Assembly (NCBI GenBank): GCA_951406725.2
Contig: OX597817.1
Location: 27,032,001 to 27,096,000 of the forward strand
Reading direction: 5' to 3'
DNA length: 64,000 nt
Source of the DNA: Octopus vulgaris
Taxonomy: Eukaryota
Shown here: one piece after another, positions 20,590 through 53,345 of the stretch
Numbering within the stretch: position 1 is the stretch's first letter
Layout of the letters: each line of letters opens with the position of its first letter
Notes under the pieces: generated by a model
Told to the model about the DNA's origin: nothing
Seen by the model: the letters and a program-made list of their open reading frames with translations, nothing else
Database searches by the model: none
Translations under genes and position numbers: made by a program

Positions 20590-21339
20590 TACCTACATAT
20601 AGACAGACATATTTTGGGGAGATGAGTCACTGCTGTCTCTAGCGGTCAAGCATCCATCATTGACAAGACCAAGGAAGGTCGAAATCATGTGAACTGATGG
20701 CCTTGGCGTTGTAGATCGTGGGGAATTATCTCTGTCATTTATACTAGCTGCTTAAATGCTTAACGCTTACACTTCTTATGCTTTGATCTTTGAATTGTAC
20801 CTATCTATTGCTACTTTGTTCCTGTTCTTAAGGACACTAAGTCATCGGGATCAAAAATCTCTAGTTCAACCTGTCGCTTAAAGCTATCCCTTTACTGAGT
20901 AAAAATAAATGAGTCTACTAATTCACAGCACCAATGAATTCATTTGCTGTATGAGGTGGAAAGCTTACTTCTTTGTAAATGACTCTTCTTTTAATTCTGA
21001 AAACGGAAACTGTACACTTCAAATTTTCTCTAATTAATTTAGATCTTGTAAAAAATTTTCCTCCTAATTGGGGTCTGAATAATTTCGAAAAAACTTTAAT
21101 CAATTTGATGAGAAAGTTTTTTTTTATTAGCACATGTGTTTAGTATGTGCACAGAGTCCAATTTGTCTGTACTTTGGTGTTCAAAATGTATTGTCATAAG
21201 GACGACACACCACATTTGCTTCCATATACTTTCCTACATATTCTGAAAATATCATTGCATAAATTAGGCTTTCAACTAATTTTTTTAAAAATTGACCTTG
21301 TAGCAATATCGTCTCTTATTGCTATCTTCACTGTTTGAG

Positions 21340-21590
21340 AATAGTATTATTATAACCTCGGTCGAGATTACAAACATCTTCGGCTAGTTCAACATTGTTG
21401 TAAACACTAATTCGATTGGCTGTCACGTTGGTATCTACTACGTTCGCACCGCTGGTTATCACTTGGCGCGATTTGCCTCCGTTTATTTTCGCGCCATAGT
21501 TCCAAGCAGCCAATCACAGCTTTCCATTTCTGAAGTTCATTGGGAGCCACAGAAAGCTTATAAAAGAAGGTTTCTCAGACAAATAGCAGT
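21340..21590 (+). promoter_or_regulatory. Putative Pol II promoter, possibly bidirectional: CCAAT boxes, E2F-like sites, TATA box, start near CAGT
   Basis: gattggctg 21414-21422 and cagccaatc 21507-21515; ttggcgcg 21463-21470 and ttttcgcgcc 21486-21495; TATAAAAG 21559-21566, 29 nt before the A of CAGT (21588); locally CpG-rich. Confidence 0.6.
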
Positions 21591-21719
21591 CTTCGACTTT
21601 TAGTCTTTGAGTTAGTTAGTTGGTGTTTTTCTGGTGTGTTATTCTGGTGTGTTTATTTCAAGAGAAGAGGTTGTGAGTTCGAGTCCGTTGGAGGACGTGG
21701 AATAATTTTTTTCTTGAAA

Positions 21720-23065
21720 ATGCAAGAGCAGACTTACGCGCGAGCGGCAAGCAGAGGCCTAGTCGCCAGTGAAAAGGAAATGGAGGAAGTGGTGGTCGAA
21801 CAGAAGACTTTACAGAAGTATTTCGACAGTTTAAAGAGGGAGGGTGACTGCGTAAGAGTCACACCGTCCGAGGAGGAGGAAAGCAGTGCAGAGAAGCGTA
21901 CTATAACGTACAGGACGTGGTGCGTGGAGTCGAAGAAAATTGAAGTAGCGGAAATAGAAGAAGTAGAAAAGTGTCTGAAGGAAATTGAGGGTGAACCCAC
22001 ATTTTTCAAAGAGGAAAGAAATATGCCACGGTTGTGGTATATTTTGAAACAGAAGATGAGGCAAAAAAGAATGCAACAAGAATTTTGAAGTCGGATAAGT
22101 GGACTTTGTTACCAAGTTACTGCGGAAGGAGAGCAGTGAGGATGAGAATCAATAGAATCTCACCCGAATTTAATATGGAAAGGTTGCTGGCAGCAGTGCT
22201 GTTTAACTGCAAGGATGATGTGGAAGTACTGAAGGTGGAGAAGTCAGCAGAGGTGAAGTGGTGGGGATATACGGTGCAGGTTCTGGCACACATAACCGTG
22301 AGGGACCTGTACAACATCCCGGAGGAGTTGGTCTACCCTGACGAGACTCGGCTCCGAGTTGTGGTAGAGGGAAGACCCCCAATTTGCTATAATTGTAAAT
22401 CGAGGGGCCACATGAAGGATGTGTGCCCTCGGGAAAAAACAAAAGCACCAGAGGTTGTGATAGAGGAGTGTAAAGATGCGTGTGTGGAGGAAGCGAAAGC
22501 GGAGGAAACACGAATGGAGGAGCAGTTAAATGAGGAAGAACGAGCAAGTGCAGAAGAGGAAAAAACAGAAGAGGAAAAAACAGAAGATAGGAAGAGATCA
22601 AGGGTGGAATCACCACCGAAAGATCAAAAAAAGAAAAAAAAAGTCAAAAGTAAGATAGCAGAAGAGAAAACATACAAAGGACAGGAAGTAAAAGAGAAGG
22701 AGAGAGAGCGGCCAAGGACAGAATTTGAACAAAAATGGGAGAAAAGAGTGAACGAACAATTGGAATCGTGTAAATATGGAAGAAGACCTACAGGAAAAAA
22801 CTTGAAGGCAGTTGTGATGTATATCAAGAATACAGAAGTGGAAAAGAGACTGGTAGGTAAGAAAGGGTTGGTCAGGGTGAAGGTGAACCCAAAACTGTAT
22901 GGTGAAGATGTAAAAGGCGTCATTATAGACAAAGAGACATACATAAAATTAAAAAAGATATATAATGCTATGCACATAGTGCATTATGTACGGTATGATA
23001 AATTACCAGATGTAATAGATCAAATGGATCTATTGGATTATATGACGGACGAGCGTCTAACGTAA
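21720..23065 (+). pseudogene. ORF1-like CDS, unit 1, one frameshift in an A run at ~22008 (may be a sequencing error)
   Basis: ORFs 21636-22088 and 22034-23065 join into the same protein as unit 7; tttcaaagagg here versus tttcaaaagagg in units 2, 3, 5 and 6. Confidence 0.75.
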
Positions 23066-23568
23066 AAGAAAAAGAATTAGAATTGTAAATTGTATGATGT
23101 AAAGTTGTATTTTGAACAAGAATATATGTAAGGTTAACATGTAAATTGTAAAATTATTGTACTTTGAACTGAATATATGTAACTGGAAAAACTGTATTTT
23201 GAACTAGAATATATGAAATGTAAAATTGTAAAATTATTGTAACTGTAAAATTGTATTGGAATATATGAAATGTATAATTGTATTTTAAACGGAACTGCGA
23301 GTTGGGGGTTCGTAAGCCGTTCCATCTCATTACATAAAATTCATTCTTACTTCATACTTTATTTTATTTATGTACCCCATGTCCCGTCTTGTAATGTCCC
23401 CCTCTTCGTCGCCCCTTGTGGGTAATAAAGAAATCAGTCTTCGACTTTTAGTCTTTGAGTTAGTTAGTTGGTGTTTTTCTGGTGTGTTATTCTGGTGTGT
23501 TTATTTCAAGAGAAAAGGTTGTGAGTTCGAATCCGTCGGAGGACGTGGAATAATTTTTTTTCTTGAAA

Positions 23569-24919
23569 ATGCAAGAGCAGACTTACGCGCGAGCGGCAAG
23601 CAGAGGCCTAGTCGCCAGTGAAAAGGAAATGGAGGAAGTGGTGGTCGAACAGAAGACTTTACAGAAGTATTTCGACAGTTTAAAGAGGGAGGGTGACTGC
23701 GTAAGAGTCACACCGTCCGAGGAGGAGGAAAGCAGTGCAGAGAAGCGTACTATAACGTACAGGACGTGGTGCGTGGAGTCGAAGAAAATTGAAGTAGCGG
23801 AAATAGAAGAAGTAGAAAAGTGTCTGAAGGAAATTGAGGGTGAACCCACATTTTTCAAAAGAGGAAAGAAATATGCCACGGTTGTGGTATATTTTGAAAC
23901 AGAAGATGAGGCAAAAAAGAATGCAACAAGAATTTTGAAGTCGGATAAGTGGTCTTTGTTACCTAGTTACTGCGGAAGGAGAGCAGTGAGGATGAGAATC
24001 AATAGAATCTCACCCGAATTTAATATGGAAAGGTTGCTGGCAGCAGTGCTGTTTAACTGCAAGGATGATGTGGAAGTACTGAAGGTGGAGAAGTCAGCAG
24101 AGGTGAAGTGGTGGGGATATACGGTGCAGGTTCTGGCACACATAACCGTGAGGGACCTGTACAACATCCCGGAGGAGTTGGTCTACCCTGACGAGACTCG
24201 GCTCCGAGTTGTGGTAGAGGGAAGACCCCCAATTTGCTATAATTGTAAATCGAGGGGCCACATGAAGGATGTGTGCCCTCGGGAAAAAACAAAAGCACCA
24301 GAGGTTGCGATAGAGGAGTGTAAAGATGCGTGTGTGGAGGAAGCGAAAGCGGAGGAAACACGAATGGAGGAGCAGTTAAATGAGGAAGAACGAGCAAGTG
24401 TAGAAGAGGAAAAAACAGAAGAGGAAAAAACAGAAGATAGAAAGAGATCAAGGGTGGAATCACCACCGAAAGATCTAAAAAAGAAAAAAATCAAAAGTAA
24501 GATAGCAGAAGAGAGAAGAGAAAACATACAAAGGACAGGAAGTAAAAGAGAAGGAGAGAGAGCGGCCAAGGACAGAGTTTGAACAAAAATGGGAGACAAG
24601 AGTGAACGAACAATTGGAATCGTGTAAATATGGAAGAAGACCTACAGGAAAAAACTTGAAGGCAGTTGTGATGTATATCAAGAATACAGAAGTGGAAAAG
24701 AGACTTGTAGGTAAGAAAGGGTTGGTCAGGGTGAAGGTGAACCCAAAACTGTATGGTGAAGATGTAAAAGGCGTCATTATAGACAAAGAGACATACATAA
24801 AATTAAAAAAGATATATAATGCTATGCACATAGTGCATTATGTACGGTATGATAAATTACCAGATGTAATAGATCAAATGGATCTATTGGATTATATGAC
24901 GGACGAGCGTCTAACGTAA
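23569..24919 (+). pseudogene. ORF1-like CDS, unit 2, frameshift in AG-rich tract at ~24510
   Basis: ORFs 23563-24582 and 24602-24919 together reconstitute the protein. Confidence 0.75.
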
Positions 24920-25428
24920 AAGAAAAAGAATTAGAATTGTTAATTGTAAATTGTATGATGTAAAGTTGTATTTTGAACAAGAATATATGTAATGTTAACA
25001 TGTAAATTGTAAAATTATTGTACTTTGAACTGAATATATGTAACTGGAAAAACTGTATTTTGAACTAGAATATATGAAATGTAAAATTGTAAAATTATTG
25101 TAACTGTAAAATTGTATTGGAATATATGAAATGTATAATTGTATTTTAAACGGAACTGCGAGTTGGGGGTTCGTAAGCCGTTCCATCTCATTACATAAAA
25201 TTCATTCTTACCTCATACTTTATTTTATTTATGTACCCCATGTCCCGTCTTGTAATGTCCCCCTCTTCGTCGCCCCTTGTGGGTAATAAAAAAATCCGTC
25301 TTCGACTTTTAGTCTTTGAGTTAGTTAGTTGGAGTTATTCTGGTGTGTTATTCTGGTGTGTTTATTTCAAGAGAAGAGGTTGTGAGTTCGAGTTCTTTGG
25401 AGGACGTGGAATAATTTTTTTCTTGAAA

Positions 25429-26780
25429 ATGCAAGAGCAGACTTACGCGCGAGCGGCAAGCAGAGGCCTAGTCGCCAGTGAAAAGGAAATGGAGGAAGTG
25501 GTGGTCGAACAGAAGACTTTACAGAAGTATTTCGACAGTTTAAAGAGGGAGGGTGACTGCGTAAGAGTCACACCGTCCGAGGAGGAGGAAAGCAGTGCAG
25601 AGAAGCGTACTATAACGTACAGGACGTGGTGCGTGGAGTCGAAGAAAATTGAAGTAGCGGAAATAGAAGAAGTAGAAAAGTGTCTGAAGGAAATTGAGGG
25701 TGAACCCACATTTTTCAAAAGAGGAAAGAAATATGCCACGGTTGTGGTATATTTTGAAACAGAAGATGAGGCAAAAAAGAATGCAACAAGAATTTTGAAG
25801 TCGGATAAGTGGACTTTGTTACCAAGTTACTGCGGAAGGAGAGCAGTGAGGATGAGAATCAATAGAATCTCACCCGAATTTAATATGGAAAGGTTGCTGG
25901 CAGCAGTGCTGTTTAACTGCAAGGATGATGTGGAAGTACTGAAGGTGGAGAAGTCAGCAGAGGTGAAGTGGTGGGGATATACGGTGCAGGTTCTGGCACA
26001 CATAACCGTGAGGGACCTGTACAACATCCCGGAGGAGTTGGTCTACCCTGACGAGACTCGGCTCCGAGTTGTGGTAGAGGGAAGACCCCCAATTTGCTAT
26101 AATTGTAAATCGAGGGGCCACATGAAGGATGTGTGCCCTCGGGAAAAAACAAAAGCACCAGAGGTTGTGATAGAGGAGTGTAAAGATGCGTGTGTGGAGG
26201 AAGCGAAAGCGGAGGAAACACGAATGGAGGAGCAGTTAAATGAGGAAGAACGAGCAAGTGTAGAAGAGGAAAAAACAGAAGAGGAAAAAACAGAAGATAG
26301 AAAGAGATCAAGGGTGGAATCACCACCGAAAGATCTAAAAAAGAAAAAAACCAAAAGTAAGATGCAGAAGAGAGAGAAGAGAAAACATACAAAGGACAGG
26401 AAGTAAAAGAGAAGGAGAGAGAGCGGCCAAGGACAGAGTTTGAACAAAAATGGGAGACAAGAGTGAACGAACAATTGGAATCGTGTAAATATGGAAGAAG
26501 ACCTACAGGAAAAAACTTGAAGGCAGTTGTGATGTATATCAAGAATACAGAAGTGGAAAAGAGACTTGTAGGTAAGAAAGGGTTGGTCAGGGTGAAGGTG
26601 AACCCAAAACTGTATGGTGAAGATGTAAAAGGCGTCATTATAGACAAAGAGACATACATAAAATTAAAAAAGATATATAATGCTATGCACATAGTGCATT
26701 ATGTACGGTATGATAAATTACCAGATGTAATAGATCAAATGGATCTATTGGATTATATGACGGACGAGCGTCTAACGTAA
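25429..26780 (+). pseudogene. ORF1-like CDS, unit 3, frameshift at ~26363
   Basis: ORFs 25231-26406 and 26463-26780. Confidence 0.75.
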
Positions 26781-27291
26781 AAGAAAAAGAATTAGAATTG
26801 TTAATTGTAAATTGTATGATGTAAAGTTGTATTTTGAACAAGAATATATGTAATGTTAACATGTAAATTGTAAAATTATTGTACTTTGAACTGAATATAT
26901 GTAACTGGAAAAACTGTATTTTGAACTAGAATATATGAAATGTAAAATTGTAAAATTATTGTAACTGTAAAATTGTATTGGAATATATGAAATGTATAAT
27001 TGTATTTTAAACGGAACTGCGAGTTGGGGGTTCGTAAGCCGTTCCATCTCATTACATAAAATTCATTCTTACCTCATACTTTATTTTATTTATGTACCCC
27101 ATGTCCCGTCTTGTAATGTCCCCCTCTTCGTCGCCCCTTGTGGGTAATAAAAAAATCAGTCTTCGACTTTTAGTCTTTGAGTTAGTTAGTTGGTGTTATT
27201 CTGGTGTGTTATTCTGGTGTGTTTATTTCAAGAGAAAAGGTTGTGAGTTCGAATTCGTCGGAGGACGTGGAATAATTTTTTTTTCTTGAAA

Positions 27292-28641
27292 ATGCAAGAG
27301 CAGACTTACGCGCGAGCGGCAAGCAGAGGCCTAGTCGCCAGTGAAAAGGAAATGGAGGAAGTGGTGGTCGAACAGAAGACGTTACAGAAGTATTTCGACA
27401 GTTTAAAGAGGGAGGGTGACTGCGTAAGAGTCACACCGTCCGAGGAGGAGGAAAGCAGTGCAGAGAAGCGTACTATAACGTACAGGACGTGGTGCGTGGA
27501 GTCGAAGAAAATTGAAGTAGCGGAAATAGAAGAAGTAGAAAAGTGTCTGAAGGAAATTGAGGGTGAACCCACATTTTTCAAAGAGGAAAGAAATATGCCA
27601 CGGTTGTGGTATATTTTGAAACAGAAGATGAGGCAAAAAAGAATGCAACAAGAATTTTGAAGTCGGATAAGTGGTCTTTGTTACCAAGTTACTGCGGAAG
27701 GAGAGCAGTGAGGATGAGAATCAATAGAATCTCACCCGAATTTAATATGGAAAGGTTGCTGGCAGCAGTGCTGTTTAACTGCAAGGATGATGTGGAAGTA
27801 CTGAAGGTGGAGAAGTCAGCAGAGGTGAAGTGGTGGGGATATACGGTGCAGGTTCTGGCACACATAACCGTGAGGGACCTGTACAACATCCCGGAGGAGT
27901 TGGTCTACCCTGACGAGACTCGGCTCCGAGTTGTGGTAGAGGGAAGACCCCCAATTTGCTATAATTGTAAATCGAGGGGCCACATGAAGGATGTGTGCCC
28001 TCGGGAAAAAACAAAAGCACCAGAGGTTGTGATAGAGGAGTGTAAAGATGCGTGTGTGGAGGAAGCGAAAGCGGAGGAAACACGAATGGAGGAGCAGTTA
28101 AATGAGGAAGAACGAGCAAGTGTAGAAGAGGAAAAAACAGAAGAGGAAAAAACAGAAGATAGAAAGAGATCAAGGGTGGAATCACCACCGAAAGATCTAA
28201 AAAAGAAAAAATCAAAAGTAAGATGGCAGAAGAGAGAGAAGAGAAAACATACAAAGGACAGGAAGTAAAAGAGAAGGAGAGAGAGCGGCCAAGGACAGAG
28301 TTTGAACAAAAATGGGAGAAAGAGTGAACGAACAATTGGAATCGTGTAAATATGGAAGAAGACCTACAGGAAAAAACTTGAAGGCAGTTGTGATGTATAT
28401 CAAGAATACAGAAGTGGAAAAGAGACTTGTAGGTAAGAAAGGGTTGGTCAGGGTGAAGGTGAACCCAAAACTGTATGGTGAAGATGTAAAAGGCGTCATT
28501 ATAGACAAAGAGACATACATAAAATTAAAAAAGATATATAATGCTATGCACATAGTGCATTATGTACGGTATGATAAATTACCAGATGTAATAGATCAAA
28601 TGGATCTATTGGATTATATGACGGACGAGCGTCTAACGTAA
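27292..28641 (+). pseudogene. ORF1-like CDS, unit 4, several single-base indels
   Basis: ORFs 27286-27660, 27606-28268 and 28312-28641. Confidence 0.75.
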
Positions 28642-29152
28642 AAGAAAAAGAATTAGAATTGTTAATTGTAAATTGTATGATGTAAAGTTGTATTTTGAAC
28701 AAGAATATATGTAATGTTAACATGTAAATTGTAAAATTATTGTACTTTGAACTGAATATATGTAACTGGAAAAACTGTATTTTGAACTAGAATATATGAA
28801 ATGTAAAATTGTAAAATTATTGTAACTGTAAAATTGTATTGGAATATATGAAATGTATAATTGTATTTTAAACGGAACTGCGAGTTGGGGGTTCGTAAGC
28901 CGTTCCATCTCATTACATAAAATTCATTCTTACCTCATACTTTATTTTATTTATGTACCCCATGTCCCGTCTTGTAATGTCCCCCTCTTCGTCGCCCCTT
29001 GTGGGTAATAAAAAAAATCCGTCTTCGACTTTTAGTCTTTGAGTTAGTTAGTTGGAGTTATTCTGGTGTGTTATTCTGGTGTGTTTATTTCAAGAGAAGA
29101 GGTTGTGAGTTCGAGTTCGTTGGAGGACGTGGAATAATTTTTTTTCTTGAAA

Positions 29153-30500
29153 ATGCAAGAGCAGACTTACGCGCGAGCGGCAAGCAGAGGCCTAGTCGCC
29201 AGTGAAAAGGAAATGGAGGAAGTGGTGGTCGAACAGAAGACTTTACAGAAGTATTTCGACAGTTTAAAGAGGGAGGGTGACTGCGTAAGAGTCACACCGT
29301 CCGAGGAGGAGGAAAGCAGTGCAGAGAAGCGTACTATAACGTACAGGACGTGGTGCGTGGAGTCGAAGAAAATTGAAGTAGCGGAAATAGAAGAAGTAGA
29401 AAAGTGTCTGAAGGAAATTGAGGGTGAACCCACATTTTTCAAAAGAGGAAAGAAATATGCCACGGTTGTGGTATATTTTGAAACAGAAGATGAGGCAAAA
29501 AAGAATGCAACAAGAATTTTGAAGTCGGATAAGTGGACTTTGTTACCAAGTTACTGCGGAAGGAGAGCAGTGAGGATGAGAATCAATAGAATCTCACCCG
29601 AATTTAATATGGAAAGGTTGCTGGCAGCAGTGCTGTTTAACTGCAAGGATGATGTGGAAGTACTGAAGGTGGAGAAGTCAGCAGAGGTGAAGTGGTGGGG
29701 ATATACGGTGCAGGTTCTGGCACACATAACCGTGAGGGACCTGTACAACATCCCGGAGGAGTTGGTCTACCCTGACGAGACTCGGCTCCGAGTTGTGGTA
29801 GAGGGAAGACCCCCAATTTGCTATAATTGTAAATCGAGGGGCCACATGAAGGATGTGTGCCCTCGGGAAAAAACAAAAGCACCAGAGGTTGTGATAGAGG
29901 AGTGTAAAGATGCGTGTGTGGAGGAAGCGAAAGCGGAGGAAACACGAATGGAGGAGCAGTTAAATGAGGAAGAACGAGCAAGTGTAGAAGAGGAAAACAG
30001 AAGAGGAAAAAACAGAAGATAGAAAGAGATCAAGGGTGGAATCACCACCGAAAGATCTAAAAAAGAAAAAATCAAAAGTAAGATAGCAGAAGAGAGAAGA
30101 GAAAACATACAAAGGACAGGAAGTAAAAGAGAAGGAGAGAGAGCGGACAAGGACAGAGTTTGAACAAAAATGGGAGACAAGAGTGAACGAACAATTGGAA
30201 TCGTGTAAATATGGAAGAAGACCTACAGGAAAAAACTTGAAGGCAGTTGTGATGTATATCAAGAATACAGAAGTGGAAAAGAGACTTGTAGGTAAGAAAG
30301 GGTTGGTCAGGGTGAAGGTGAACCCAAAACTGTATGGTGAAGATGTAAAAGGCGTCATTATAGACAAAGAGACATACATAAAATTAAAAAAGATATATAA
30401 TGCTATGCACATAGTGCATTATGTACGGTATGATAAATTACCAGATGTAATAGATCAAATGGATCTATTGGATTATATGACGGACGAGCGTCTAACGTAA
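29153..30500 (+). pseudogene. ORF1-like CDS, unit 5, indels in A-rich tracts at ~29995-30100
   Basis: ORFs 29147-30022 and 30183-30500. Confidence 0.75.
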
Positions 30501-30994
30501 AAGAATTAGAATTAGAATTGTAAATTGTATGATGTAAAGTTGTATTTTGAACAAGAATATATGTAATGTTAACATGTAAATTGTAAAATTATTGTACTTT
30601 GAACTGAATATATGTAACTGGAAAAACTGTATTTTGAACTAGAATATATGAAATGTAAAATTGTAAAATTATTGTAACTGTAAAATTGTATTGGAATATA
30701 TGAAATGTACAATTGTATTTTAAACGGAACTGCGAGTTGGGGGTTCGTAAGCCGTTCCATCTCATTACATAAAATTCATTCTTACCTCATACTTTATTTT
30801 ATTTATGTACCCCATGTCCTGTCTTGTAATGTCCCCCTCTTCGTCGCCCCTTGTGGGTAATAAAAAAATCCAGTCTTCGACTTTTAGTCTTTGAGTTAGT
30901 TAGTTGGTTGGAGTTATTCTGGTGTGTTTATTTCAAGAGAAGAGGTTGTGAGTTCGAATTCGTCGGAGGACGTGGAATAATTTTTTTCTTGAAA

Positions 30995-32348
30995 ATGCAA
31001 GAGCAGACTTACGCGCGAGCGGCAAGCAGAGGCCTAGTCGCCAGTGAAAAGGAAATGGAGGAAGTGGTGGTCGAACAGAAGACTTTACAGAAGTATTTCG
31101 ACAGTTTAAAGAGGGAGGGTGACTGCGTAAGAGTCACACCGTCCGAGGAGGAGGAAAGCAGTGCAGAGAAGCGTACTATAACGTACAGGACGTGGTGCGT
31201 GGAGTCGAAGAAAATTGAAGTAGCGGAAATAGAAGAAGTAGAAAAGTGTCTGAAGGAAATTGAGGGTGAACCCACATTTTTCAAAAGAGGAAAGAAATAT
31301 GCCACGGTTGTGGTATATTTTGAAACAGAAGATGAGGCAAAAAAGAATGCAACAAGAATTTTGAAGTCGGATAAGTGGACTTTGTTACCAAGTTACTGCG
31401 GAAGGAGAGCAGTGAGGATGAGAATCAATAGAATCTCACCCGAATTTAATATGGAAAGGTTGCTGGCAGCAGTGCTGTTTAACTGCAAGGATGATGTGGA
31501 AGTACTGAAGGTGGAGAAGTCAGCAGAGGTGAAGTGGTGGGGATATACGGTGCAGGTTCTGGCACACATAACCGTGAGGGACCTGTACAACATCCCGGAG
31601 GAGTTGGTCTACCCTGACGAGACTCGGCTCCGAGTTGTGGTAGAGGGAAGACCCCCAATTTGCTATAATTGTAAATCGAGGGGCCACATGAAGGATGTGT
31701 GCCCTCGGGAAAAAAACAAAAGCACCAGAGGTTGTGATAGAGGAGTGTAAAGATGCGTGTGTGGAGGAAGCGAAAGCGGAGGAAACACGAATGGAGGAGC
31801 AGTTAAATGAGGAAGAACGAGCAAGTGTAGAAGAGGAAAAAACAGAAGAGGAAAAAACAGAAGATAGAAAGAGATCAAGGGTGGAATCACCACCGAAAGA
31901 TCTAAAAAAGAAAAAAATCAAAAGTAAGATAGCAGAAGAGAGAGAAGAGAAAACATACAAAGGACAGGAAGTAAAAGAGAAGGAGAGAGAGCGGCCAAGG
32001 ACAGAGTTTGAACAAAAATGGGAGACAAGAGTGAACGAACAATTGGAATCGTGTAAATATGGAAGAAGACCTACAGGAAAAAACTTGAAGGCAGTTGTGA
32101 TGTATATCAAGAATACAGAAGTGGAAAAGAGACTTGTAGGTAAGAAAGGGTTGGTCAGGGTGAAGGTGAACCCAAAACTGTATGGTGAAGATGTAAAAGG
32201 CGTCATTATAGACAAAGAGACATACATAAAATTAAAAAAGATATATAATGCTATGCACATAATGCATTATGTACGGTATGATAAATTACCAGATGTAATA
32301 GATCAAATGGATCTATTGGATTATATGACGGACGAGCGTCTAATGTAA
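30995..32348 (+). pseudogene. ORF1-like CDS, unit 6, one extra A at ~31715
   Basis: ORFs 30851-31750 and 31695-32348 overlap across a homopolymer. Confidence 0.75.
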
Positions 32349-32852
32349 AAGAATTAGAATTGTTAATTGTAAATTGTATGATGTAAAGTTGTATTTTGAA
32401 CAAGAATATATGTAATGTTAACATGTAAATTGTAAAATTATTGTACTTTGAACTGAATATATGTAACTGGAAAAACTGTATTTTGAACTAGAATATATGA
32501 AATGTAAAATTGTAAAATTATTGTAACTGTAAAATTGTATTGGAATATATGAAATGTATAATTGTATTTTAAACGGAACTGCGAGTTGGGGGTTCGTAAG
32601 CCGTTCCATCTCATTACATAAAATTCATTCTTTACTTCATATTTTATTTTATTTTATGTACCCCATGTCCCGTCTTGTAATGTCCCCCTCTTCGTGGCCC
32701 CTTGTGGGTAATAAAAAAACAGTCTTCGACTTTTAGTCTTTGAGTTAGTTAGTTGGAGTTATTCTGGTGTGTTATTCTGGTGTGTTTATTTCAAGAGAAG
32801 AGGTTGTGAGTTCGAATTCGTCGGAGGACGTGGAATAATTTTTTTCTTGAAA

Positions 32853-34196
32853 ATGCAAGAGCAGACTTACGCGCGAGCGGCAAGCAGAGGCCTAGTCGCC
32901 AGTGAAAAGGAAATGGAGGAAGTGGTGGTCGAACAGAAGACTTTACAGAAGTATTTCGACAGTTTAAAGAGGGAGGGTGACTGCGTAAGAGTCACACCGT
33001 CCGAGGAGGAGGAAAGCAGTGCAGAGAAGCGTACTATAACGTACAGGACGTGGTGCGTGGAGTCGAAGAAAATTGAAGTAGCGGAAATAGAAGAAGTAGA
33101 AAAGTGTCTGAAGGAAATTGAGGGTGAACCCACATTTTTCAAAGAGGAAAGAAATATGCCACGGTTGTGGTATATTTTGAAACAGAAGATGAGGCAAAAA
33201 AAGAATGCAACAAGAATTTTGAAGTCGGATAAGTGGACTTTGTTACCAAGTTACTGCGGAAGGAGAGCAGTGAGGATGAGAATCAATAGAATCTCACCCG
33301 AATTTAATATGGAAAGGTTGCTGGCAGCAGTGCTGTTTAACTGCAAGGATGATGTGGAAGTACTGAAGGTGGAGAAGTCAGCAGAGGTGAAGTGGTGGGG
33401 ATATACGGTGCAGGTTCTGGCACACATAACCGTGAGGGACCTGTACAACATCCCGGAGGAGTTGGTCTACCCTGACGAGACTCGGCTCCGAGTTGTGGTA
33501 GAGGGAAGACCCCCAATTTGCTATAATTGTAAATCGAGGGGCCACATGAAGGATGTGTGCCCTCGGGAAAAAACAAAAGCACCAGAGGTTGTGATAGAGG
33601 AGTGTAAAGATGCGTGTGTGGAGGAAGCGAAAGCGGAGGAAACACGAATGGAGGAGCAGTTAAATGAGGAAGAACGAGCAAGTGTAGAAGAGGAAAAAAC
33701 AGAAGAGGAAAAAACAGAAGATAGAAAGAGATCAAGGGTGGAATCACCACCGAAAGATCAAAAAAAGAAAAAAATCAAAAGTAAGATAGCAGAAGAGAAA
33801 ACATACAAAGGACAGGAAGTAAAAGAGAAGGAGAGAGAGCGGACAAGGACAGAGTTTGAACAAAAATGGGAGACAAGAGTGAACGAACAATTGGAATCGT
33901 GTAAATATGGAAGAAGACCTACAGGAAAAAACTTGAAGGCAGTTGTGATGTATATCAAGAATACAGAAGTGGAAAAGAGACTTGTAGGTAAGAAAGGGTT
34001 GGTCAGGGTGAAGGTGAACCCAAAACTGTATGGTGAAGATGTAAAAGGCGTCATTATAGACAAAGAGACATACATAAAATTAAAAAAGATATATAATGCT
34101 ATGCATATAACGCATTATGTACGGTATGATAAATTACCAGATGTAATAGATCAAATGGATCTATTGGATTATATGACGGACGAGCGTCTAATGTAA
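32853..34196 (+). CDS. ORF1/Gag-like nucleic-acid-binding protein (Tx1-ORF1/ZCCHC3-like), unit 7, 447 aa open frame
   Basis: ATG at 32853 (MQEQTYARAA), motif IPEELVYPDETRLRVVVEGRPPICYNCKSRGHMKDVCP (CCHC knuckle), E/K-rich linker, stop at 34196. A compensated -1/+1 indel pair near 33140-33200 replaces RGKKYATVVVYFETEDEA with EERNMPRLWYILKQKMRQ. Confidence 0.8.
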   Translation: MQEQTYARAASRGLVASEKEMEEVVVEQKTLQKYFDSLKREGDCVRVTPSEEEESSAEKRTITYRTWCVESKKIEVAEIEEVEKCLKEIEGEPTFFKEERNMPRLWYILKQKMRQKKNATRILKSDKWTLLPSYCGRRAVRMRINRISPEFNMERLLAAVLFNCKDDVEVLKVEKSAEVKWWGYTVQVLAHITVRDLYNIPEELVYPDETRLRVVVEGRPPICYNCKSRGHMKDVCPREKTKAPEVVIEECKDACVEEAKAEETRMEEQLNEEERASVEEEKTEEEKTEDRKRSRVESPPKDQKKKKIKSKIAEEKTYKGQEVKEKERERTRTEFEQKWETRVNEQLESCKYGRRPTGKNLKAVVMYIKNTEVEKRLVGKKGLVRVKVNPKLYGEDVKGVIIDKETYIKLKKIYNAMHITHYVRYDKLPDVIDQMDLLDYMTDERLM

Positions 34197-35654
34197 AAGA
34201 ATTAGAATTGTTAATTGTAAATTGTATGATGTAAAGTTGTATTTTGAACAGGAATATATGTAATGTTAACATGTAAATTGTAAAATTATTGTACTTTGAA
34301 CTGGAATATATGTAACTGGAAAAACTGTATTTTGAACTAGAATATATGAAATGTAAAATTGTAAAATTATTGTAACTGTAAAATTGTATTGGAATATATG
34401 AAATGTACAATTGTATTTTAAACGGAACTGCGAGTTGGGGGTTCGTAAGCCGTTCCATCTCATTACATATAATTCATCTTTACTTCATATTTTATTTTAT
34501 TTTATGTACCCCATGTCCCGTCTTGTAATGTCCCCCTCTTCGTCGCCCCTTGTGGGTAATAAAAAAACTTTAGTTCTTCTCAGAGCTCTTAGGCTTTTAG
34601 TTTCAGTCCTTCTCAGGGCGAACCTCTGACCACACAGCTCGTCTTAGGCTTTTAGTTCTTTTAAGAACTAAGTCTCTGACCACACAGAGAATACTCGACC
34701 AAGTTCCAGTTCGAGGCAGGCGACCACCATTAATACAAGATGTTACAGATACCTCTCATACTGTTAGTGTGAAATATCACCATGAAGAAAACGGTTACAA
34801 GATATCTATAACTAGAGAAAAATAACCAAGCAGAACATATAATGAAGAAGCAGCAAGAACCAATCGACAAACATCGAAGATTTAAATTGTACACGAGACA
34901 ACTACAGATTCAACTATAGCGGTTAGGTGAAATTCTCGCCACGAAGAAAACGGCTACAGTAACATGTCTGGAAGTATATTCATATCAAGAGAAAGATAAA
35001 CACAACGAGTGATTCAATTAATCTCAACTGCGACACGCAATATCTTGATATGGAACTCTTACGCTGTACCTCTTGAAACGGTAAATCAATTATCTGTTCT
35101 TGGGTTCTAGTTTCTTCTAAGAACTACCTTAAGCCATCTGTTATTACCTGTTGCCAAGCCGATACCAACAACATTAACTGTGAATCAAATCCCATCGTCT
35201 TTCACTGGTCAGTACCTTTTTACGCCTAACGAACACACAGACACAAAAACATGCGAACACTTACAAACTTCCAACATCAAACATGATTGTAAAATATGTA
35301 AAATAAATAATGTATATATCTTAAAAAGAAATCTTGTTGTCATTCCAAACTTATGTGTATTGCCGCTGCATGTATTATATAGTCAGTAAATAAATTATTA
35401 AGAATGGGATCGCGTGCGATGGTATATTCTATACGATGCGACCGCATGTGATCCTATTTTTATAACCTTATTTGAAATGGATCTCCAATCCTTCTGACAG
35501 ATTTAAACCTATACTACCACAATTAGACCCCTCCCCACGTATTTTACTGTTGGTTCTGTTCTTATTGTGTAGTTTGGTTTTATTTAATATTTTCTCATTG
35601 ACTCAAGATGCTTTCTGCTTTCTATACTAGAAGCCGCTTTCTTTACTAGAAGCC

Positions 35655-49575: not shown

Positions 49576-49823
49576 TACATACATACATATATATATATAC
49601 ATTTGTCAATTGTGGAACACGACTGTCACAGCATAGACCTAATATTTGCGTAAGGCAAAAAGTGTAAAATTGTAAAAATTGCAATTAATAAAACGTGAAA
49701 ATCAGACTAGGCATGGATGAAATTCCTTAGATCATATGTATGTTCGCTCAATCAGAATTGGCCAAGGTTGAAATAAGTAGTGACAGCAATCATCTGGTCA
49801 GTCACCTGTATCGATACGCGTAA

Positions 49824-50058
49824 GGCGGCGAGCTGGGAGAAGCGTTAGCACGCCGAGCGAAATGCATTGCGGTATTTCGTCTGCCGTTACGTTCTGAGTT
49901 CAAATTCCGCCGAGGTCGACTTTGCCTTTCATCCTTTCGGGGTCGATAAATTAAGCACCAATTACGCACTGGGGTCGATGTAATCGACTTAATACCTATG
50001 TCTGTCCTTGTTTGTCCCCTCTATGTTTAGCCCCTTGTGGGTAATAAAGAAATAGGTA
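49824..50058 (+). mobile_element. SINE family B, full length (tRNA-like head, Nin-like domain, tail shared with the array unit)
   Basis: ggcggcgagctgg...gagttcaaattcc...ggggtcgataaattaagcacc...gccccttgtgggtaataaagaaataggta. Confidence 0.85.
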
Positions 50059-52499: not shown

Positions 52500-53345
52500 T
52501 TTTCTGTTATAGGCACAAGACCTGAAATTTGGCGAAAAGGTACTAGTCGAGATCATCGACTCCAGTGTTTCACTGGTACTTAATTTATCGACCCCGAATG
52601 GATGAAAGGCAAAGACGACCTCAGCGGAATTTAAACTCAAAACGTAAAGATGGACGAAATCCGGCTAACCATTTTGCTCAGCGGGCTAACGATTCTGCCA
52701 GCACACCGCATTTCATAATAATAATGATAAACTTTTCTGTTATAAGCACAAGGCCTGAAATATGGGGGAGGAGAATAGTCGACCACATCGACCCCAGTGT
52801 TTGACTGGTACTTATTTTATAGACCCCTTAAAGGATGAAAGGCAAAGTCGACCTCGGCGGAATTTGAACTCAGAACGTATCGGCAGACGAAATACTTATT
52901 TCTTTACTACCCACAAGGGGCTAAACACAGAAGGGACAAACAAGGACAGACAAACGGATTAAGTCGATTATATCGACCCCAGTGCGTAACTGGTACTTAC
53001 TTTATCGACCCCAAAAGGATGAAAGGCAAAGTCGACCTCGGCGGAATTTGAACTCAGAACGCAGCGGCAAACGAAATACCTATTTCTTTACTACCCACAA
53101 GGGGCTAAACACAGAGGGGACAAACAAGGACAGACAAATGGATTAAGTCGAGTATATCGACCCCAGTGCGTAACTGGTACTTACTTTATCGACCCCGAAA
53201 GGATGAAAGGCAAAGTCGACCTCGGTGGAATTTGAACTCAGAAAGTAGCGGCAGACGAAATACCGCTAAGCATTTCGCCCGGCGTGCTAACGTTTCTGCC
53301 AGCTCGCCGCCTTTCATAATAATCCTTTCTATAATAGGCACCAAA
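51875..53345 (-). mobile_element. Cluster of about 7 head-to-tail family B SINEs with alternative tails
   Basis: Repeated tcgaccc...ggatgaaaggcaaagtcgacctcggcggaatttgaactcag, with a 184-bp period at 52893-53261. Confidence 0.85.

Follow-up and report, generated by a model that had tools for sequence, protein, structure and literature searches.

ORF1-only LINE derivatives of Octopus vulgaris in head-to-tail trains behind the TATA boxes of other mobile elements

How does an element that carries only the first open reading frame (ORF1) of a long interspersed nuclear element (LINE) come to stand seven times in a row at a single place in a genome? This question is raised by a 64,000-nucleotide stretch of Octopus vulgaris DNA, here called the window (assembly GCA_951406725.2, contig OX597817.1, positions 27,032,001 to 27,096,000 of the forward strand), which in the assembly sequence holds seven ORF1-only units of 1848-1862 bp each, head to tail, at window positions 21587-34567. 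A first-pass annotation had read them as a non-autonomous L1/Tx1-like element mobilised in trans and piled up at one interstitial site, or else as a recently amplified domesticated gene. It did not note that the array is embedded in a long terminal repeat (LTR), H1 (21299-35464), directly behind a promoter with CCAAT and TATA boxes. From the genome-wide evidence set out below, we consider it likely that such units insert at the start sites of host promoters, which they then borrow, and that their trains grow serially.

Trains across the genome and their spacing to TATA boxes

Rather than being confined to one interstitial site, the family is found genome-wide, with trains at many loci. A nucleotide search of the 2.8-Gb genome, in which 39 of 348 candidates were scored, gave at least 67 matches to the unit sequence, and a protein search gave at least 150 scored matches over several contigs, many of them broken. 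In 20 of 23 annotated regions at least two ORF1 elements stand head to tail, often from different families (A, B, C and E), so the array is not a one-off deletion derivative, an outcome that the first-pass annotation had named beforehand; the longest train in these regions has 12 units. Six regions end in a LINE with a visible second reading frame (ORF2) and a seventh ends in that LINE's ORF1. Because the regions were picked for the presence of family A, statistics on train order are biased. All ORF1-only units examined have ORF1 followed by a 3' untranslated region (UTR) and a tail, the layout of HAL1-type elements. As in such elements, they have a 3' end in common with an autonomous LINE, and their target-site duplications (TSDs) and 5' truncation are the marks of target-primed reverse transcription (TPRT).

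The flanks of the window array recur beside copies at three further loci and, once aligned, reconstruct a ~1.2-kb element whose ends are TG...TA and which is flanked by a 4-bp duplication. H1 appears to be a solo LTR, judging from these ends and from its TSDs, with no internal domain seen; matching 4-bp TSDs surround other copies (e.g., L080, L085, L088, L093, L094, L096, L097 and L098). It is an abundant family (446 candidates) that ends in TG...TA instead of TG...CA. Of 30 fetched copies 28 are empty, and the array position corresponds to a point 28-30 nt past TATAAA. Other hosts include a non-autonomous Helitron, a second LTR, repeats of Penelope-like look and apparently single-copy sites. 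The Helitron, H2 (L101-L130; 1941 candidates), has a 5' TC and a 3' hairpin followed by CTAG, and its filled sites are ~12 nt shorter than the empty ones, a loss that could reflect homologous 5' joining or the spread of an already filled Helitron. Hosts H3-H5 look Penelope-like from their repeat layout and motifs, a label that is unconfirmed; Rfam found no hammerhead at 8 of their loci, and a downstream reading frame at L142 gave only a sub-threshold match to RVT_1. Separate rearrangements were seen at L139 and in the region C1:74,665,200-74,686,499: ORF1 copies of family C standing as an inverted pair, and an inversion inside one C unit.

What these hosts have in common is a distance. An automatic TSD search across 38 trains gave 24 clear results; for the other 14 it gave no result or a wrong one, among them the train in the window, those in Helitron H2 (all six) and L133, whose TSD was found by eye. 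A TATA-like word lies 22-40 nt upstream in 21 of the 24 TSD-bearing trains, against a background of 7.4%, a count in which the loose motif was fixed after data inspection and the hosts are not independent. With a strict motif, TATA[AT]A at 22-34 nt, and one representative for each of 13 hosts, the box is present in 9 against a background of 5.2% (P about 2e-9), and the matches fall at 26-31 nt. The TSDs of ORF1-only insertions measure 11-23 bp, and the nick sequences show no consensus across the 13 hosts. A blind set, drawn with an exact 3'UTR word, returned 29 matches, 26 of them already known and three new (L172-L174), all 5'-truncated. One of the new copies, the 260-nt stub L172, has an 18-bp TSD and lies 31 nt past TATAAAT; L133, also truncated and the fourth such copy, has a TSD of 19 bp and lies 30 nt past the same word. 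Neither truncated copy could have been selected for expression. A common short interspersed nuclear element (SINE) with the same tail is at background, showing the TATA spacing in 3 of 42 copies, and in 1 of the 9 that have a TSD (the 42 were collected by BLAST).

The heads of the units tell of their hosts as well. The units of the window had been described as fused with no spacer; their first ~18 nt are instead not element-specific and match H1 just past its start site, and elsewhere an identical unit body bears different heads in different hosts. At L014 the second unit shows the host's TSD and then a head from H1, which suggests that heads record the start site of the previous host, and this is the arrangement expected if the source RNA had started at the LTR start site. 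Several trains also show double heads, one nested in the other. Contigs from three putative RNA runs, in which DNA is possible, cover the unit and an open frame at 22007, and contig X2, from an independent and putatively RNA run, joins the unit to LTR R sequence; such contigs do not reveal start sites.

We propose the following course of events. The unit would descend from an L1/Tx1-type LINE, keeping only ORF1 and having no promoter of its own; its RNA would begin at the start site of an upstream host TATA promoter and stop at the AATAAA of the unit. The ORF2 protein of a LINE, reading the common 3' hairpin tail, would reverse-transcribe this RNA in trans, with a first nick ~26-31 nt past the TATA box, that is at the start site of RNA polymerase II (Pol II), leaving the 11-23-bp duplication. 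A following copy would insert at the same promoter-anchored spot, ahead of its predecessor, and since the promoter remains upstream, polarised trains would grow, made up of a single family or of several. The hosts are mostly promoters of other mobile elements, namely LTRs, Helitrons and Penelope-like repeats. As for how the site is found, the most likely means, to which we give a little less than an even chance, is a particle tethered, probably via the ORF1 protein (ORF1p), to the preinitiation complex of TATA-binding protein (TBP) and TFIID; such a tether would account for the conservation of an ORF1 that could otherwise be dispensed with.

The ORF1 protein, the shared tail and the LINE

An AlphaFold model of the intact copy L011, built from a 6-row alignment, is confident for residues 23-240 only (mean pLDDT 54.8) and matches proteins with tandem RNA recognition motifs (RRMs; Foldseek E about 1e-4). 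Residues 50-137 match single RRMs (best Z 8.7, root-mean-square deviation 2.8, 81 aligned) and residues 134-221 form a second ferredoxin/RRM-like domain (Z about 7), both at modest Z; a zinc knuckle lies C-terminal to them (zf-CCHC at E 0.001, which falls short of the Pfam threshold). Type I ORF1 proteins are described as an RRM plus a CCHC knuckle (PMC5203782), and the predicted fold of the unit protein, with two RRM-like domains and a CCHC knuckle, is of this type. Its core can be aligned to three other octopus ORF1s at 25-30% identity, one of them from a full LINE. The proposal of an L1/Tx1-ORF1-type protein thus agrees with both fold and homology, and these, with the tail common to the full LINE, support the earlier view of a non-autonomous LINE derivative moved in trans. 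The nearest named homologues come from O. bimaculoides, O. sinensis, O. vulgaris and Argonauta. A sequence search against solved structures gave nothing beyond a weak knuckle match, human L1 ORF1p was absent from the fold matches listed for the model, and Pfam gave no match to Transposase_22.

Comparisons between subfamilies along the first 238 codons put the ratio of non-synonymous to synonymous substitution rates (dN/dS) at 0.08-0.15 in eight of nine cases, one being saturated. By this codon comparison ORF1 is under purifying selection (dN/dS about 0.1). An intact frame of 439-454 aa is kept in 12 of 34 young copies genome-wide; the other 22 are broken. Homologues of ORF1 in cluster P0135 come from Logan contigs that, at 1849-1930 nt, are as long as a single ORF1-only unit.

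The last ~40 nt are common to families A, B, C and E, to an autonomous LINE here called LINE D and to the common SINE. LINE D, of which at least 31 copies are present at 98-100%, has an ORF2 open for 1132 aa with Exo_endo_phos (the apurinic-type endonuclease, APE), RVT_1 and zf-RVT domains. Among solved structures this ORF2 is closest to human L1 ORF2p (E 1e-60, against E 4e-26 for R2), a coarse comparison that lists just two clades; by its reverse transcriptase (RT) it is an L1-clade element. Searches for relatives of the ORF2 returned no named Tx1 references. Twenty of its copies were placed, 16 directly after another tail and 4 in the Helitron. ENA clusters P0009, P0015 and P0022 (385-732 members) show 51-53% identity to the LINE RT, which may therefore have close relatives outside cephalopods.

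Several further observations concern tails and tandems. Older family A subfamilies (L144, L160 and L152, compared with the window) have a different hairpin tail and a third type is found on the LINE that lies upstream in L151/L152, so that tails may have been swapped to suit different partners; a search for a LINE with the second tail type found none, L171 being without ORF2. Autonomous LINE tandems with a period of ~5.26 kb occur at C32:169025-180041, C3:34854548-34860340, C4:143175885-143181682, C12:75766708-75772496 and C19:57852-63639. The Helitron H2 carries a tailless LINE ORF1 relic directly behind its TATA box, and it is always the first bases of this relic that LINE D targets. In the window, a copy of the common SINE at 49822-50055 has the same 3' tail as the units and the LINE, and a 184-bp tandem of partial SINE copies at 52787-53264, seen also at L045, shows that the SINE has its own short head-to-tail repeats.

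The seven-unit array in the window

The seven units differ pairwise by 7-23 substitutions, and their head-to-tail order, starts and ~1.85-kb length (Table 1) bear out the first-pass annotation. The structured 3' end that it described is in every unit, as GCCCCTTGTGGGT, which forms a hairpin, with AATAAA and a short stretch of A after it; the ORF1 motifs that it named were found, and no ORF2 follows, there being none in the 5' or 3' flank within the window. A CAGT start holds for five of the seven, with CCGT in units 3 and 5. Its single intronless ORF did not survive inspection: none of the seven is cleanly intact from its ATG, and the long frame of unit 7 contains an out-of-frame segment bounded by two compensating shifts. 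A lesion near codon 97 is common to units 1, 4 and 7 and to four copies elsewhere, and it looks inherited because it is identical in these 7 of 34 young copies; the other breaks may include homopolymer errors. The 3'UTR (23070-23290 and equivalents) is made of degenerate AT-rich internal repeats of 25-88 bp.

Table 1. Features of the host LTR and the ORF1-only array, in window positions
Feature	Position	Strand	Remarks
TSD of host LTR, ACCT, 4 bp	left 21295..21298, right 35465-35468	+	like TSDs flank other LTR copies
Host solo LTR H1 (putative), 5' U3-like promoter part	21299..21586	+	starts TGTAGC; common to 40 scored of 446 candidates
CCAAT box, reverse	21415..21419	-	predicted from sequence
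Second CCAAT box	21510-21514	+	predicted from sequence
TATA box, TATAAA	21559..21564	+	28 nt ahead of unit 1
Unit 1	21587..23434	+	host-derived head ~18 nt, 5'UTR, ATG 21720, 122 aa, ORF1 frameshift near codon 97, 3'UTR, tail 23411
Unit 2	23435..25295	+	ATG 23569; RRM-RRM-CCHC part open, 337 aa, then frame lost
Unit 3	25296..27156	+	ATG 25429; 325 aa
Unit 4	27157..29018	+	ATG 27292; 122 aa
Unit 5	29019..30870	+	ATG 29153; 289 aa
Unit 6	30871..32719	+	ATG 30995; 251 aa
Unit 7	32720..34567	+	ATG 32853; 447 aa, frame shifted and restored by two compensating shifts; tail 34545
Host LTR H1, 3' R/U5-like part	34568..35464	+	AATAAA at 35302 and 35389; end CCTATTTTTATA

Other explanations, known systems and meaning

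A number of observations weigh against start-site-directed insertion and serial growth, and some of them bear on the window itself. Its train gave no clean TSD in the automatic search. The closest pairs are units 2/4 and 3/5 (7 substitutions), which have junction types in common, and unit 7 is a mosaic of variants, a pattern that suggests duplication, conversion or assembly mixing. Local duplication has probably added to the unit count. That the array as a whole is one or two insertions enlarged by unequal crossing-over, or partly an assembly error, we find doubtful, even with low support within the clade and a copy number taken from the assembly. The junction tails vary among units, and unit 3 stands at a distance of 0.0012 from a copy at C4:97.9 Mb, 70 Mb off, but at 0.0024 from the units beside it (low support); the mixed-family trains elsewhere could not arise by duplicating a single unit. 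The window units cluster with copies 70 Mb distant and in Helitron hosts (clade of 11 rows, support 100/100), and none of these 11 copies has a fully intact ORF, a further adverse point from which it would follow that ORF1 in cis is dispensable for some steps. A pure assembly artefact was considered and rejected, and satellite DNA is ruled out by coding content, dispersal and TSDs.

Other adverse points concern the target. The strict TATA box is missing in 4 of the 13 hosts, three of which have TATA-like variants at 21-30 nt, and H3-H5 may be related and so not wholly independent. The fourth of these hosts is that of the blind copy L173, which has a 19-bp TSD beginning TCAGT and no TATA; another blind copy, L174, meets the LTR start site on its 3' side, with the promoter missing upstream. 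LINE D behaves differently again: its head ACA(T/C)GG is invariant in 20 of 20 copies, a single-target-sequence feature that the ORF1-only family lacks, three of its Helitron copies lie 39-40 nt past the TATA box, not 30, and in one Helitron copy (L178) the TATA is deleted. All this fits sequence-specific cutting by LINE D, which may then not be the partner of the ORF1-only units. One could extend such specificity to the units, with a Tx1-type endonuclease reading a DNA target or the TATA itself, no transcription factor being needed and the TSD regenerating the target; Tx1 elements do choose other transposons as targets, and SINEU-3 copies stand in tandem around a TSD (PMC4494074). While direct sequence reading suits LINE D best, for the units we hold it to be unlikely, given nick sequences that differ over 13 hosts at a constant TATA spacing and a same-tail SINE that is untargeted. 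Insertion could also be untargeted, favouring open promoter chromatin, with amplification limited to copies behind promoters. As the element has no evident promoter, selection for expression must indeed act, and most loci came from full-length searches. On the other hand, stubs of ~260 nt and 1.2 kb, unable to propagate as full units, keep the 30-31-nt spacing, and misplaced copies would not be purged by selection, yet 26 of the 29 exact 3'UTR matches were already known and the 3 new ones are non-random, which makes this account improbable.

Two further accounts fare worse. In a single event of template jumping, the LINE RT would copy its own RNA and then ORF1-only RNAs; this would place the ORF2-bearing LINE last, as in six of the 23 regions (with its ORF1 last in the seventh), and would leave tails in common. 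It is very unlikely, and disfavoured by inner TSDs, since a LINE within a train has its own 15-bp TSD and inner junctions bear host-specific duplications; the +40 site of LINE D suffices to place it last, and in L151 and L152 a LINE stands upstream of the unit. As for the recently amplified domesticated ZCCHC3-like gene, the purifying selection on ORF1 and the putative RNA contigs with their open frame speak for a zinc-knuckle gene, but copies are dispersed over contigs instead of forming a single fixed orthologous locus, they have TSDs, 5'-truncated stubs and LINE tails, and 22 of 34 young copies are broken, so that we find the idea scarcely credible.

Parts of the proposed start-site-directed insertion have precedents. 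HAL1 derives from a mammalian L1 with a Transposase_22 ORF1. It is a non-autonomous LINE derivative with ORF1p only (PMC5753468), as the octopus units are ORF1-only and non-autonomous; these differ in their type I ORF1 (RRM and CCHC), cephalopod host, targeting, arrays and apparently external promoter, and with an ORF1 that is homologous to that of the octopus LINE and lacks Transposase_22 they are not HAL1 proper. Tx1L inserts in Tx1D, and SINEU-3 in Mariner-N4_AMi, where tandems sandwich a TSD and transcription of SINEU from flanking host sequence has been proposed (PMC4494074). The octopus units also insert in other transposons and form tandems; whereas those elements have one target sequence, mainly set by the endonuclease, the octopus units use at least 13 host sequences alike only in TATA spacing and, unlike SINEU-3, encode ORF1. 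In Dictyostelium, TRE5-A ORF1p binds TFIIIB subunits in vitro, and yeast Ty3 inserts 1-4 bp upstream of RNA polymerase III (Pol III) start sites (PMC5006619). Position-specific insertion beside a preinitiation complex would be common to all three, although theirs is at Pol III genes, while in the octopus the targets resemble TATA promoters of Pol II, the targeted promoter would also serve the element itself and the protein contact is hypothetical. Drosophila HeT-A is Gag-only and forms polarised arrays mixed with RT-encoding partners, its Gag doing the targeting (PMC5537684). Octopus trains are likewise polarised and mixed with an RT-encoding LINE, as in HeT-A/TART/TAHRE, but HeT-A belongs to another LINE clade, sits at chromosome ends and has its promoter in the 3'UTR of the upstream copy, whereas octopus trains are interstitial, with TSDs, behind a foreign TATA box; the window array lies inside an LTR, 27 Mb into a contig of 177 Mb, away from telomeric terminal addition. 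In literature listings and abstracts, a scope outside which lie most subscription journals and Repbase Reports, we found no account of trains that are anchored to a TATA box or built of ORF1-only units. For O. vulgaris, 13 recently active L1-Tx1 families are reported, with no train or TATA detail in the portion available to us (PMC13282606), and the ORF1-only families may already be in the repeat library of that study.

An important aspect of these findings is what they would mean for target choice. In non-LTR elements this is usually credited to the DNA preference of the endonuclease, and a site measured from the TATA box would, if true, be a new targeting rule. It also offers a reason for selection on ORF1 in ORF1-only elements, an open point for HAL1-like elements, and it shows mobile elements parasitising one another's promoters, with trains that could be read as ordered insertion records; TPRT directed to start sites could be of interest where a gene is to be placed under a promoter already present. 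More broadly, and as a tentative idea to which we give rather less than even weight, several ORF1-only families and their LINE partners may form an octopod guild that docks on the Pol II preinitiation complex, with ORF1p as the adaptor, and inserts at the start sites of active TATA promoters. If so, the host promoter would be captured, the transcript of the host element displaced and a time-ordered, polarised record of insertions laid down. Such a guild would be for Pol II what TRE5/Ty3 targeting is for Pol III, would divide labour in the manner of HeT-A, and might hold back LTR, Helitron and Penelope elements as a natural brake.

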